Source: Candidatus Omnitrophota bacterium (GTDB lineage Bacteria > Omnitrophota > Gorgyraeia > 2-01-FULL-45-10). From it: a DNA stretch of 64,000 nt. Numbering within the stretch: position 1 is the stretch's first letter; each line of letters starts with the position of its first letter. The stretch covers positions 15,876 to 79,875 of the forward strand of contig JAGOLR010000001.1 in the NCBI GenBank assembly GCA_017993955.1, given 5' to 3'. The translations under genes were made by a program, and so were the position numbers. Below are positions 7,437 through 60,589 of this stretch, piece after piece. The notes beneath the pieces are model-generated. The model made no database searches and was not told the origin of the DNA. It saw only the letters and a list, made by a program, of their open reading frames with translations.

Positions 7437-7663
7437 TGTGTATAAAAAATCCCCGCTGATGCCGTGTGTGATTGAATTATCTTGACCCTGTTCGTAACAG
7501 GTGGGTGCCCTCGTACGTACGCCAAGGCGTCCGTTCAGTTAGGCTCCCTAGTTTAGTGCTAATGGCTCAAGATTCTCCATCCGAATCACGCACATCGCAG
7601 GGAATTTTTATTCCACTACAAGTATATCACAAAAATCGGGAAAGACAAATCGAACCCCGGCCG

Positions 7664-28708: not shown

Positions 28709-28822
28709 AATTTGTTTGTTGGGTTTGTTGCGTTTATTGCGTTTGTTGAGTTATTTACATAACACAATAGACCCAAAAACGCAACGAACGCAATGAACTA
28801 ACCTGCAGATTAAGAGGAGACA

Positions 28823-31492: not shown

Positions 31493-31595
31493 TCATATGC
31501 GTTTATAGTTCATTGTCTATCGTTTATCGTAAAAGACACTATACGATTAACGATTGACGATTAACAAAAACGATGCTATAAGATTACAACACGTC

Positions 31596-31673
31596 GTCCC
31601 CATCGTCTAGTCTGGTCTAGGACATCAGATTTTCATTCTGACGACCCGGGTTCGAATCCCGGTGGGGACGCCA
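31596..31673 (+). tRNA. tRNA-Glu (anticodon UUC)
   Basis: Acceptor GTCCCCA..TGGGGAC, D-arm GTCT-AGTCTGGTCTA-GGAC, anticodon loop TTTTCAT, T-arm CCGGG-TTCGAAT-CCCGG, discriminator G, CCA encoded. Confidence 0.85.
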
Positions 31674-47680: not shown

Positions 47681-47753
47681 CAGGATGTCGTTTATCGACC
47701 TATATTATTTACGATAAACGATGAACTATATACGATAAACGAAAAGGACTAAG

Positions 47754-54279: not shown

Positions 54280-54338
54280 TAATTTGACATCGCCCGGGTA
54301 TTGGGCTAAAATAAATAAAATTAATAAACCTTTTAAAC

Positions 54339-54418
54339 CCAGTCCCGTGAGGCTGGAAAGGGAGAGCGAAGATGGAAACTGATCCCGTTTATCTATTTAT
54401 AGATAGGCGGGTTTTTTG
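54339..54418 (+). promoter_or_regulatory. PyrR-binding anti-antiterminator loop plus terminator (pyr attenuator)
   Basis: AGUCCCGUGAGGCU at 54341-54354 matches the PyrR box ARUCCNGNGAGGYU. A terminator hairpin CCCGTTTATCTAT-tta-TAGATAGGCGGG plus TTTTTTG follows at 54384-54418, just upstream of pyrR. Confidence 0.7.
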
Positions 54419-57250: not shown

Positions 57251-58483
57251 ATGCCTTTCATCGTCGATCTCCATATACATTCAAGATATTCGCGCGCTAC
57301 GGCCAAGGATATGGACATAGAAAATCTCGTTAAGTGGGCCAAGATAAAAGGTATTGCGATGCTGGGCTCGGGAGATTTCACTCATCCGGCCTGGCTTGCG
57401 GAACTGAAAAAGAAGTTATCCCCGAAGTCCCGCGGAGTCTATGACCACGACGGGGTGGATTTTATACTGACCGGTGAAGTCTCAAATATATATTTTAAGG
57501 CGGGCCGGACGCGAAAAGTCCATAATATAATAGCTGTACCGGATTTTGAGGCGGCTGAAGAAGCGGCCGAGGCTCTTTCAGATTACGGAGACCTTAATTC
57601 AGACGGGCGCCCGATACTGCATCTGGAATGCGACAGGATGGCCAGGATGCTTTTCGGGATACATCCCGACATACTTATAATGCCGGCCCATGCCTGGACG
57701 CCGCATTTCAGCATATTCGGATCGAACTCAGGTTTCGATTCCCCCGCAGAATGTTTTGAAGGGGAGTTGCCGAAAATATTTTCGATAGAGACCGGGCTTT
57801 CGAGCGACCCAGAGATGAACTGGAGATGGTCGGCGCTCGACAGGTTCTGCCTTACATCGCATTCTGACGCTCATTCGCCGCACAAGATAGGGCGGGAGGC
57901 GAATGTATTTAAAGACAATATAGACTATCCGACGCTTGTAGAAGTGCTTAAGACCAAAGACAATAAAAGGTTCCTTTACACCATAGAATTTTTCCCCGAA
58001 GAGGGGAAGTACCACTGGGACGGCCATCGCGCTTGCGGCGAACGCTTATCCCCGGAAGACGCTATTCGTTCTAACAATCTTTGCCCCTCTTGCGGCAAAA
58101 AATTGACCATAGGTGTAATGCACAGGCTCTCAAGCCTGGCCGATAGGCCTTGCGGTTATGTCGACAAGAAGAGCCCGCGGTCTAAGAAATTAGTTCCGCT
58201 TGCTGAAATCATAGGGAGCGTGCTCGGGGTTTCGCCTGATTCTGTGTCGGTAGGTAAGGAATATTTTAAAATGATCAAAAATTTCGGGACAGAGTTCGGG
58301 GTATTGCTCGATGCTCCCGAAGAGGCCTTGCGGGAGAAATGCCTTCCCGGGGTGGCTCAAGGCGTAATTAATGTAAGAAGCGGCAACCTTGATATCGAAC
58401 CGGGATATGACGGCGAGTACGGTAAGGTAAACGTCTTGAAAAATGATAGTAACCGTAAGGATAAACAATTGAGTTTCTTGTAA
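57251..58483 (+). CDS. PHP-domain endonuclease Q-like protein (TIGR00375-type)
   Basis: N-terminal PHP domain (IVDLHIHSRYSRA), SDAHSP, zinc ribbon CPSCGKK, and LVPLAEIIG matching the EndoQ C-terminal region. 410 aa. Confidence 0.55.
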   Translation: MPFIVDLHIHSRYSRATAKDMDIENLVKWAKIKGIAMLGSGDFTHPAWLAELKKKLSPKSRGVYDHDGVDFILTGEVSNIYFKAGRTRKVHNIIAVPDFEAAEEAAEALSDYGDLNSDGRPILHLECDRMARMLFGIHPDILIMPAHAWTPHFSIFGSNSGFDSPAECFEGELPKIFSIETGLSSDPEMNWRWSALDRFCLTSHSDAHSPHKIGREANVFKDNIDYPTLVEVLKTKDNKRFLYTIEFFPEEGKYHWDGHRACGERLSPEDAIRSNNLCPSCGKKLTIGVMHRLSSLADRPCGYVDKKSPRSKKLVPLAEIIGSVLGVSPDSVSVGKEYFKMIKNFGTEFGVLLDAPEEALREKCLPGVAQGVINVRSGNLDIEPGYDGEYGKVNVLKNDSNRKDKQLSFL

Positions 58484-58497
58484 GAAAAGCACGGTTT

Positions 58498-59376
58498 TTG
58501 ACTCCGGACCCTAGACGAATGAAGCAGCTAAATACAAAAATAATTCATAACAAAAAAATAACGCCGCACCACTATAAGATGCGGCTAGAGTCCGGACATC
58601 TTGCTAAGCACTCTAACCCGGGGCAATTTGTGGAGGTCCGTTGTTCACACCATCCGGATCCTCTCCTGAGGCGTCCTCTGGGCGTTCACAGGATATTGCC
58701 GGATGGAATAGAGATTCTTTATGAGATCGTCGGGCGCGGGACAGAGTTGTTATCGCTAAAGAAAGCCGGAGAGGTTCTTGACGTGATCGGCCCTTTAGGT
58801 AATGGCTTCGGTATAAGGTCCATGGGCAATGGTTCACAGTCCACGGTTTTGGTTGCCGGTGGTATAGGGGTAGCGCCTTTGCTGGCGTTGGCGGAGAAAG
58901 TAGCGTATAGCGTAGAGCGCATAGCGGATAGGAAAAAAATAAAAGTTTTTATAGGCGCAAAAACCGCCTCGCATATATTATGCGCCGAAGAATTCAAAAA
59001 GTTGGGTTGCAAGGTTTATGTCGCAACCGAAAACGGTTCAAAAGGACATAAAGGGCTTATCACAGATTTACTCGACGGTTTTCTGCAATCAATGATTAAC
59101 GATCAACGATTAACGATCAACGAACGGCGAACGACGATATACGCTTGCGGCCCGACCGGTATGCTCAAAGCCGTTGCCGGGATCTCCGGAAGGCACGATA
59201 TCCCATGTCAGGTATCCCTGGAAGAACGCATGGCCTGCGGCGTAGGCGTTTGCCTTGGCTGCCCTGTCAAAATCCGTTCGGCACATACGATTAACGATGG
59301 ACGATCTACGATAAACGAATATAAGATGGTCTGTAAAGACGGTCCGGTCTTTGATGCGGACAGTATAGCTTGGTGA
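58498..59376 (+). CDS. pyrK: Dihydroorotate dehydrogenase electron-transfer subunit PyrK, carrying two short in-frame repeat-derived insertions
   Basis: FAD/NAD-binding fold with a C-terminal 2Fe-2S motif CGVGVCLGCPV...CKDGPVF. Insert-like segments INDQRLTINERRT and SAHTINDGRSTINE are encoded by ACGATTAACGAT-type repeats. Confidence 0.85.
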   Translation: MTPDPRRMKQLNTKIIHNKKITPHHYKMRLESGHLAKHSNPGQFVEVRCSHHPDPLLRRPLGVHRILPDGIEILYEIVGRGTELLSLKKAGEVLDVIGPLGNGFGIRSMGNGSQSTVLVAGGIGVAPLLALAEKVAYSVERIADRKKIKVFIGAKTASHILCAEEFKKLGCKVYVATENGSKGHKGLITDLLDGFLQSMINDQRLTINERRTTIYACGPTGMLKAVAGISGRHDIPCQVSLEERMACGVGVCLGCPVKIRSAHTINDGRSTINEYKMVCKDGPVFDADSIAW

Positions 59377-59403
59377 GAAAAGAAAAATTTTGTTATCGAT
59401 TAT

Positions 59404-59615
59404 TACTCCCGTGGTGGGTGTCTCGCGGGAACATCCGATTTTCCCCGGCGAGGAAAATCGGATTCGGTAAAATTGCTCGCTCTTTTGTGGCTGGGCTTTT
59501 GAACCGGGTGCTTGGATCACAGCTACGTGACTTTAGCACCCGGTTCAAACTGTGGCCACAAAAACCGTGCCCGCTCGCAATTTTAACGTCCCGCTTAACA
59601 CCCACCACGGGAGAT
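59404..59615. repeat. Nested perfect-palindrome element (MITE-like or structured RNA) in the pyrK-pyrD spacer
   Basis: A 16-nt perfect inverted repeat CTCCCGTGGTGGGTGT / ACACCCACCACGGGAG (59406-59421 and 59598-59613) encloses an ATCCGATTTTCC/GGAAAATCGGAT hairpin and a 12-bp GAACCGGGTGCT/AGCACCCGGTTC hairpin flanked by TTGTGGC/GCCACAA. Confidence 0.6.
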
Positions 59616-59677
59616 ATGGTGGGAAATAAAAATTTTTCATCGGGGAAATACAATTTCGTGATAAGCTTGAAGGCTAG

Positions 59678-60589
59678 ATGATGATGAAACCAAATCTTGC
59701 CGTAAAGATAGGAAGACTGAAATTAAAGAATCCCGTTATGGTGGCGTCCGGGACATTCGGCGAAGAGTACGGCGAGATGACGGATGTATCGAAACTTGGC
59801 GCTGTGGTCGCCAAGACCATAACGCTAAAGGCCAGGGTCGGTAATCCGCCTCCGCGTGTATGCGAAACAGATTCCGGCATGCTTAACTCAATAGGGCTGG
59901 AAAATAAAGGGGTGGAAGAGTTTATGTCCAGAAAACTTCTCGCCTTGAAAAAATTCCGCGTGCCGGTGGTGGTTAGTATAGCGGGTGAGTCCGAGGATGA
60001 ACTCGCGGAGCTGGCAAGCCGTCTCAAGGCGGTCGATGCCCTTGAGGTGAACCTGTCATGTCCCAACGTGAAACACGGCGCCCGCGAGGGGCTTATAGCC
60101 CAAGATGCCAGCGCAGTAGCGGCCTGTATTTCTGCTGTACGTAAAGCTACAAAAGCGCCCTTGATCGCCAAGCTCACGCCCAACGTTACGGATATAGCGA
60201 AGATAGCCGTTTCTGCAGAATCGGCCGGAGCCGATGCGGTCCTCGTAGCCAATACATTTTTCGGAATGGCAGTGGATATATATGCAAGGCGTCCAAAGCT
60301 GGGTAATATATGCGGGGGATTAAGCGGTCCGGCCATAAAACCTATGTCGCTTAAGATGGTGTGGGATACGGCGCGTAAGGTGAAAATACCGGTCATAGGC
60401 TGCGGCGGTATCATGGATTATAAAGATGCCGTGGAATTTATGCTCTGCGGAGCCTCCGCCATACAGGTGGGAACGGCGAATTTTGTAGCTCCGGACGCCT
60501 CCGCCGAAATAGTAAAAGGGATAGCAAGATATATGTCAAAAAACAAGATCGCTGATATAAGTAAATTAAGAGGAGCGCTTTTGGTATGA
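59678..60589 (+). CDS. pyrD: Dihydroorotate dehydrogenase catalytic subunit (class 1B)
   Basis: 303 aa with NPVMVASGTFG. It follows pyrK. Confidence 0.9.
   Translation: MMMKPNLAVKIGRLKLKNPVMVASGTFGEEYGEMTDVSKLGAVVAKTITLKARVGNPPPRVCETDSGMLNSIGLENKGVEEFMSRKLLALKKFRVPVVVSIAGESEDELAELASRLKAVDALEVNLSCPNVKHGAREGLIAQDASAVAACISAVRKATKAPLIAKLTPNVTDIAKIAVSAESAGADAVLVANTFFGMAVDIYARRPKLGNICGGLSGPAIKPMSLKMVWDTARKVKIPVIGCGGIMDYKDAVEFMLCGASAIQVGTANFVAPDASAEIVKGIARYMSKNKIADISKLRGALLV

Follow-up and report, generated by a model that had tools for sequence, protein, structure and literature searches.

In-frame heptanucleotide repeat arrays at four predicted loops of PyrK in Omnitrophota

The stretch of DNA that was analysed (64,000 nt of a Candidatus Omnitrophota genome, hereafter the window) contains dnaA-dnaN-gyrB-gyrA, as read from ORF sizes and order, and is therefore placed near the replication origin. 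Rfam searches located a 6S RNA (7446-7606, minus strand) and a PyrR-binding attenuator (54325-54418) upstream of pyrR-pyrB. The gene that hosts the coding arrays described below is a 285-aa ORF (58519..59376, plus strand) with Pfam domains PF10418 and PF00175, and was identified as pyrK, encoding the electron-transfer subunit of dihydroorotate dehydrogenase B. The protein was identical to MBP7055295.1 (Candidatus Omnitrophota MAG); its model matched the L. lactis PyrK structure 5ksw_B (TM 0.78/0.84), and its 2Fe-2S Cys residues aligned with those of 5ksw_B. The features by which PyrK was recognised were all present: a FAD/NAD-binding fold, a C-terminal 2Fe-2S domain with four Cys, and an adjacent pyrD (at 59678).

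Between pyrC and pyrK lies a 410-aa gene with PHP and MJ0043_C domains (57251-58483), found likewise in the relatives L001, L002, L004 and L213; its conserved presence in the Omnitrophota pyr operon is unusual. The pyrC of L001 (6731-8009) was split by gene calling into fragments of 212 aa and 93 aa, compared with 429 aa in the window, which reflects either a frameshift or an error of a low-coverage assembly (coverage 2.5). The pyrK-pyrD spacer (~300 nt) holds a nested inverted repeat (59383-59636; 48-nt outer arms, -137.8 kcal/mol, z -12.9), single-copy in the window, present also in L001 and absent from L002, where the spacer measures 17 nt. This inverted repeat matched no Rfam family; a MITE and a structured RNA are both possible.

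The initial annotation had reported a short repeat family common to the gyrA-tRNA-Glu spacer, the nagA-glmS spacer and two segments of pyrK; a motif no commoner than composition predicts would have counted against it. The family was confirmed: the motif ACGATWAACGA had seven exact matches in the window (31520, 31543, 47711, 47732, 59106, 59287 and 59308), all within those segments, vs 0.10 expected from dinucleotide shuffles, and 14 matches vs 2.8 expected when one mismatch was allowed. Tandem Repeats Finder (TRF) and a separate lag scan showed that what repeats is a heptamer, ACGATNN, in tandem. Period-7 TRF calls at 31500, 31543, 58901 and 59088 consisted of head-to-tail heptamers with at least three units, and a register analysis agreed. 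Seven period-7 arrays were counted in the window vs ~0.2 in shuffled sequence, and every other period between 4 and 13 gave two arrays at most. ACGATNN itself made up five arrays at three loci, three of them in spacers and two in pyrK. Window genes other than pyrK contained no array, even at low thresholds, and no Rfam family was matched at any of the window arrays.

In both spacers the heptamers form inverted pairs (Table 1), which fold as hairpins (gyrA/tRNA-Glu: -23.3 kcal/mol, z -4.2; nagA/glmS: -15.1 kcal/mol, z -2.95). No fold was predicted for the pyrK arrays, which are direct repeats (z +1.2 and +0.8). The earlier description of the units as near-palindromic was thus mistaken: only the two intergenic loci hold both orientations and fold. 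The plus-strand array of the nagA/glmS spacer stops 9 nt upstream of the glmS start codon (47754). A consensus promoter/terminator scan returned nothing convincing at either array-bearing spacer; upstream of tRNA-Glu, a TTGACG within the heptamer array is followed after 17 nt by TATAAG (31554-31582), ~14 nt before the tRNA gene. This possible promoter, whose -35 element would come from the repeat, was not reported by the consensus scan because TATAAG lacks the final T. In the gyrB-gyrA spacer (28714-28798), 9-nt tandem arrays of GTTTGTTGC (x4.3) and AACGCAACG (x2.3) were observed, near reverse complements of one another and so an inverted array pair of differing period (9 nt).

Table 1. Coordinates of the repeat arrays and hairpin mini-elements in the window and in the other loci examined
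Feature	Locus	Coordinates	Strand	Description
pyrK site A, decayed heptamer array	window	58818..58846	+	GTCCATG GGCAATG GTTCACA GTCCACG G; loop after GPLGNGF
pyrK site B, second heptamer family	window	58900..58932	+	TAGCGTA x ~4.4; peptide AYSVERIAD; TRF period 7
pyrK site C	window	59092..59140	+	ATGATTA ACGATCA ACGATTA ACGATCA ACGAACG GCGAACG + flank unit ACGATAT
pyrK site D	window	59287..59321	+	ACGATTA ACGATGG ACGATCT ACGATAA + flank unit ACGAATA; peptide TINDGRSTINE
Inverted pair, gyrA/tRNA-Glu spacer	window	31500..31565	both	(-) array 31500-31530, (+) array 31543-31565; tRNA-Glu at 31596
Inverted pair, nagA/glmS spacer	window	47688..47745	both	(-) single unit 47688-47698, (+) array 47711-47745
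Hairpin mini-elements	L009	416-497, 709-794		
Hairpin mini-elements	L010	2117-2167, 2332-2428		
Hairpin mini-element	L007	1139-1210		
pyrD array	L134	12794-12845		
pyrD array	L135	6794-6837		
pyrD array	L136	12761-12788		
pyrD array	L137	3806-3851		
pyrD array	L138	12689-12730		
carB array	L168	1909-1954		one of the two listed of three carB arrays
carB array	L194	5271-5316		one of the two listed of three carB arrays
ACGATNN in RecJ / class I aminoacyl-tRNA synthetases	L031; L054; L090	6926-6957; 3376-3400; 287-311		

Both pyrK segments of the initial annotation (sites C and D) were found, in frame and within the 285-aa ORF; the TAGCGTA array of site B and the decayed array of site A had been overlooked. 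The DNA of site C encodes MINDQRLTINERRTT; it adds six heptamers (42 nt, 14 aa) ahead of IYACGP, the segment being 14 aa longer than in the minimal orthologue P0086 (TRF periods 7 and 14, score 65). Within the 2Fe-2S motif, site D separates the third Cys (C248) from the fourth (C272). Lag-7 matches numbered 13/22 at site A, 20/26 at site B, 31/42 at site C and 20/28 at site D.

Since 7 and 3 are coprime, successive units of a heptamer array fall into each of the three reading frames, and three units make seven codons, giving a peptide of period 7 (TIND-x-R-x). An array of ACGATTA alone would be translated as TIND*RL, and one of ACGATAA alone as TINDKR*, both with a stop. The window pyrK reads TINDQRL and TINDGRS, and relative L002 reads TINDKRL; in the window peptides the unit that would place TAA in frame was therefore altered. 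The last two unit positions vary in pyrK and not in the spacers, because in-frame stops must be avoided. In-frame arrays thus stay readable only through a total length that is a multiple of three, combined with patched stops.

An AlphaFold model of the window PyrK (mean pLDDT 82.9) placed all four array segments in low-confidence loops, with pLDDT < 50 at residues 133-136 (site B) and 257-263 (site D) and the site C loop at residues 195-204. The solved structures 4ylf_A and 5ksw_B are gapped at sites B, C and D, and structure alignment showed that the array inserts are not present in the solved PyrK and NfnA structures. The pyrK arrays are accordingly predicted to occupy four surface loops, a point that the initial annotation had wanted modelled.

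Orthologous proteins were surveyed in 30, then 120 Omnitrophota sequences (250-311 aa). PyrK length varied at only four places in this survey: after GPLGNGF (A), after APLLALAE (B), before IYACGP (C), and between CLGCPV and EYKMVC (D). The minimal proteins P0086, P0105 and P0074 were without all four inserts. In nine orthologous pyrK DNAs, heptamer or octamer arrays were found at sites A-D, usually of ~4 units, and the units were unrelated: ACGAACG, ACGCAAT, ACGAGAT, ACGATAC, GTCAGAA x8, AGCTTTC and CTATCCG. At the position homologous to site A, L002 carries AGCCCAT AGTCCAT AGCCCAC AGTCCAT and L008 carries the GTCAGAA array. Site B is occupied in orthologues by arrays of AGCGCAN, AGCTTTC or the octamer CCGGTTNN and is empty in the minimal orthologues. 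At site D, arrays of ACGAATG/ACGAACG, ACGCAAT, ACGAGAT or CGAAAAC all end in an ACGAA-TAC flank, which encodes E-Y; the 3' array unit merges into this conserved flank. In L007 the octamer AACCGGCA is present at all four pyrK sites. The encoded peptides (for example TNDERRT from ACGAATG/ACGAACG and TQYAIRN from ACGCAAT) have a period of 7 or 8 residues, following the heptamer or octamer unit, and the survey of peptides from 120 orthologues was consistent with the arrays seen in the nine DNAs.

From these comparisons the array sites are common to the phylum, the unit sequence alone being lineage-specific at those sites. The two pyrK segments had been proposed to be lineage-specific insertions, which stands in part: they are extra relative to the minimal orthologues and to the solved structures, but it is their units, and not their positions, that are peculiar to a lineage. 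One outcome that the initial annotation had itself set against its reading, namely orthologues with extra segments of unrelated DNA, was found at the same four positions. Pairing between arrays at the RNA level was considered as a conserved feature and rejected: in L002, L004 and L006 the array at site B is the reverse complement of that at site C, which is not so in the window or L008.

The insert peptides could have been selected for a role in the protein, such as a partner interface near the Fe-S cluster, and they are indeed hydrophilic, sit at fixed loops and in one case lie beside the cluster ligands. We regard this as extremely unlikely. No amino-acid conservation was detected within the PyrK inserts in the orthologue comparison; the peptides are unrelated across orthologues and it is the DNA periodicity that persists, in segments of low pLDDT that are missing in close relatives. 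Most likely, the encoded peptides are tolerated passengers in disordered loops, and not adaptations.

Close relatives differed by whole numbers of units. Between L212 and L213 (92% nt identity), site A holds 4 vs 1 copies of AAACGAAA, a difference of exactly 24 nt, and site D shows a net difference of 24 nt. In L006 and L211, which share 93% nt identity, the B and C arrays are identical, while site D of one is exactly 21 nt (of ACGCAAT) longer than that of the other. The length steps between close relatives thus equal three whole units, 24 nt for octamers or 21 nt for heptamers. The window and its 98% relative L001 showed no difference in copy number, which gives no sign of instability over short times here, and their C and D arrays were identical; 4/7 of the amino-acid differences between the two PyrK proteins belong to the decayed arrays, A and B (3/7 to A).

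The initial annotation had read the segments as a MITE-like inserting element, and a tiny mobile unit (MITE- or SDR-like, ~30-50 nt) that copies into new sites in frame, coding loops included, might explain why ACGATNN occurs at five unlinked places within 64 kb and why its intergenic copies are hairpins. Bona fide hairpin mini-elements do lie in frame within the arrays of L009, L010 and L007, and the related peptides SEAEPPR.GR and ADPPQAEN recur at differing sites in different orthologues; this has a parallel in the SDR elements of cyanobacteria, which sit within heptamer repeats. The window arrays, however, have no inverted termini, target duplication or constant length, their boundaries are in unit register and fused with the flank, and the pyrK copies are direct and do not fold. 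The filled/empty alignments (L212/L213 and L006/L211) contained neither target-site duplications nor inverted ends, and relatives differ by integer unit numbers, in steps of three. We therefore consider a mobile element an improbable source of the arrays.

The mini-elements of the orthologous pyrK genes are GC-rich hairpins with stems of up to 17 bp (-27 to -49 kcal/mol), in frame (coordinates in Table 1), and are candidates for a truly mobile mini-element. No nested hairpin mini-element was present in the window arrays.

Unit sequences were more alike within genomes than across them. Unit pairs with at most two mismatches made up 48% of comparisons between different sites of one genome vs 24% at the same site across genomes (Fisher p = 0.011), and when all arrays were taken together, within-locus likeness of units exceeded between-locus likeness (permutation p < 0.001). 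In L135, the units GCTACAC, GCTCCAC and GCTTCAC (GCTNCAC) each occur as four perfect copies, at three sites. Units thus track the genome more than the orthologous site. It counts against slippage alone that the sharing of units among the unlinked arrays of one genome (window, L135, L007) is left unaccounted for.

The distribution of arrays across genes was determined in related loci, a sample that was centred on the pyr operon. In 80 such loci period-7 arrays reached 0.47/kb in pyrK vs 0.10/kb outside it, and other periods were lower. Over ~805 kb of related loci the period-7 arrays were counted as follows: pyrK, 49 in 72.5 kb; pyrD, 5 in 54.6 kb; carB, 3 in 59.5 kb; pyrB, pyrC, pyrF, pyrE, pyrR and the PHP gene, none in 80.6 kb; other ORFs, 12 in 497.5 kb, mostly weak or spurious; non-ORF DNA, 55 in 40.3 kb. 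Array density in pyrK was thus ~28-fold that of other ORFs in this census. General enrichment across the pyrimidine genes was rejected, pyrB, pyrC, pyrF, pyrE and pyrR having no arrays. Tolerance of loops leaves the ~28-fold pyrK density, vs zero in pyrB, pyrC, pyrF and pyrE, unaccounted for, and this counts against it as a full explanation.

The pyrD arrays of relatives all lie directly after the active-site motif NISCPN, in frame, with heptamer or octamer units, and take the place of the usual VKHGG loop; the window pyrD keeps the ordinary loop. In carB (carbamoyl-phosphate synthase large subunit), two relatives carry an in-frame heptamer array at one linker, after YSTYE, and the unit of L168 is ACGATTC x4, with the same core as the ACGATNN of the window.

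These distributions bear on whether the heptamers are selected cis-sites, bound as DNA or mRNA by a multimeric factor that recognises heptads and co-evolves with the unit, so that the arrays of pyrK, pyrD and carB would tune expression of the pyrimidine operon. Co-evolving sites should keep their positions throughout the phylum while their units turn over and are common to a genome, as is seen here; the coding arrays outside pyrK cluster in pyrD (after NISCPN) and carB; and sense arrays stop 9 nt before the glmS start and ~30 nt before tRNA-Glu, like the TAACTGA repeats that were proposed as regulator sites (PMC4679880). Against this, no factor is known, minimal orthologues are entirely without arrays, whole arrays are present or absent between relatives of 88-92% identity, and a single pyrK can mix array families and orientations. 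The 80.6 kb that includes pyrB, pyrC, pyrF, pyrE and pyrR holds no array, and the bias towards pyr genes is partly one of ascertainment, the loci having been sampled around the pyr operon. On balance, selected cis-sites are unlikely. A dedicated sequence-specific system, of which the arrays would be products or targets, is likewise improbable: this would be either a protein or RNA that recognises heptads and whose specificity drifts by lineage, or a templated repeat-adding or converting activity that overwrites older arrays with the current unit of the genome. If it existed, the arrays in the pyrK loops, the pyrD active-site loop and the carB linker would be functional cis-elements of pyrimidine synthesis.

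A non-triplet unit in coding sequence is also the classic anatomy of phase-variable genes (PMC2651432), and some arrays are perfect or nearly so (ACGCAAT x4; GTCAGAA x8 with one mismatch), so that the repeats could act as a reversible frameshift switch of PyrK in a host-dependent bacterium. Yet ~90 pyrK genes with ~50 arrays were all intact in consensus assemblies, and the sole short pyrK ORF seen among ~90 loci was an array-free distant homologue. The arrays are short (~4 units) and often imperfect, and four switches in one biosynthetic gene would have no obvious rationale. A contingency locus is therefore very unlikely.

A scan of contigs for (ACGATNN)x3.5 returned at least 120 stretches among the matches listed, from many phyla: these included Chloroflexia, Acidobacteriota, Bacteroidota, Verrucomicrobiota and cyanobacteria, and none of the matches listed was labelled Omnitrophota. 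On these matches, the ACGATNN unit is not confined to one lineage. The unit was seen in frame within RecJ (Nitrospirota MAG) and within class I aminoacyl-tRNA synthetases (Chthonomonadia and Chloroflexia MAGs), and the array-bearing RecJ also holds an SQKSEVRSQ segment resembling site A of P0009. A peptide search with concatenated array translations retrieved only short hypothetical ORFs called over intergenic arrays.

The reading that we favour, with moderate confidence, is that the arrays are fast-evolving microsatellites, a genome-specific family of the heptamer repeats in which this genome, like many other bacterial ones, is enriched. They would change by three-unit slippage steps, be homogenised genome-wide and pass through a filter of selection, the peptides being passengers. 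Arrays would grow and shrink through replication slippage; in pyrK, selection would pass only three-unit steps (21 nt, or 24 nt for octamers) and only those unit variants that have no in-frame stop, in tolerant loops. Arrays would decay by point mutation and then be re-homogenised by fresh expansion from a single unit, and exchange among the arrays of one genome, by gene conversion or re-seeding, would keep units alike within a genome and lineages apart. The anatomy of the arrays, their frame arithmetic and stop patching, their location in loops of the model, the three-unit differences between relatives and the sharing of units within genomes were shown directly; slippage as the process, exchange between arrays and neutrality of the peptides are inferred.

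Several known repeat systems were compared with these microsatellite-like arrays. The SDR elements of Nostoc, described by Elhai and colleagues in 2008, are reportedly discrete hairpin elements of 21-27 nt that are associated with tandem heptamer repeats. Hairpins are likewise nested in the arrays of the orthologues L009 and L010, but are longer than SDR, and the window segments consist of plain arrays that contain no discrete element. The Rickettsia palindromic elements (RPE) of Ogata and colleagues (dating from 2000) are said to be ~100-150 bp long and of fixed sequence; they resemble the pyrK arrays as repeated DNA that lies in frame in a conserved protein gene, at a surface position and with function kept, but the window type consists of tandem 7-nt arrays and RPE are not known to vary in unit number. 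Coding repeats of Borgs have unit lengths divisible by three, unlike the pyrK type, whose unit is 7 or 8 nt and whose frame is kept by total array length only. In Borg ORFs, fast-changing tandem repeats of recent origin create disordered regions (PMC9879509), just as the pyrK arrays add disordered peptide segments to an ORF. With phase-variable SSR (PMC2651432) the arrays share a non-triplet SSR in coding sequence and slippage as the putative mutational process, but no frameshifted alleles were seen (~90 loci, consensus assemblies), the arrays consist of few, imperfect units, and they lie in a housekeeping biosynthetic gene.

The closest likeness was to heptamer families such as GGGNATC of Xanthomonas and Nostoc, in which ~four units are preferred (PMC4692102), and the TAACTGA repeats of Beggiatoaceae, cyanobacteria and Bacteroidetes, which have been proposed as regulator sites and whose orientation in ORFs is limited by stop codons (PMC4679880). 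The known heptamer repeats are found mostly between genes, occur as inverted pairs and are often sited a short way ahead of a start codon (PMC4692102, PMC4679880). With the STRR of Calothrix and Nostoc, GGGNATC and TAACTGA, the window arrays have in common a 7-nt unit, short arrays, many dispersed loci and genome-specific families. They are unlike these in occupying, phylum-wide, four loops inside a conserved enzyme, with stop-patched units, three-unit steps and concerted evolution at the level of the genome. Every feature of heptanucleotide repeats that was tested was found in the arrays, and the MITE features that were tested were lacking. A literature search found no description of such arrays in Omnitrophota or in PyrK; the ACGATNN unit and Omnitrophota as a host phylum have not been described among heptamer repeats.

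Non-triplet microsatellites are usually viewed either as kept out of the coding sequence of housekeeping genes or as frameshift switches. In Omnitrophota, a 7-nt repeat has a stable place in four loops of a conserved redox enzyme, phylum-wide. As a practical consequence, low-complexity inserts of 7-residue periodicity in MAG proteins can be recognised as repeats at the DNA level, and not as domains or assembly errors. The pyrK arrays are a natural system in which repeat dynamics can be measured against purifying selection, and they bear on what homogenises dispersed heptamer arrays, a question that dates from the cyanobacterial STRR.
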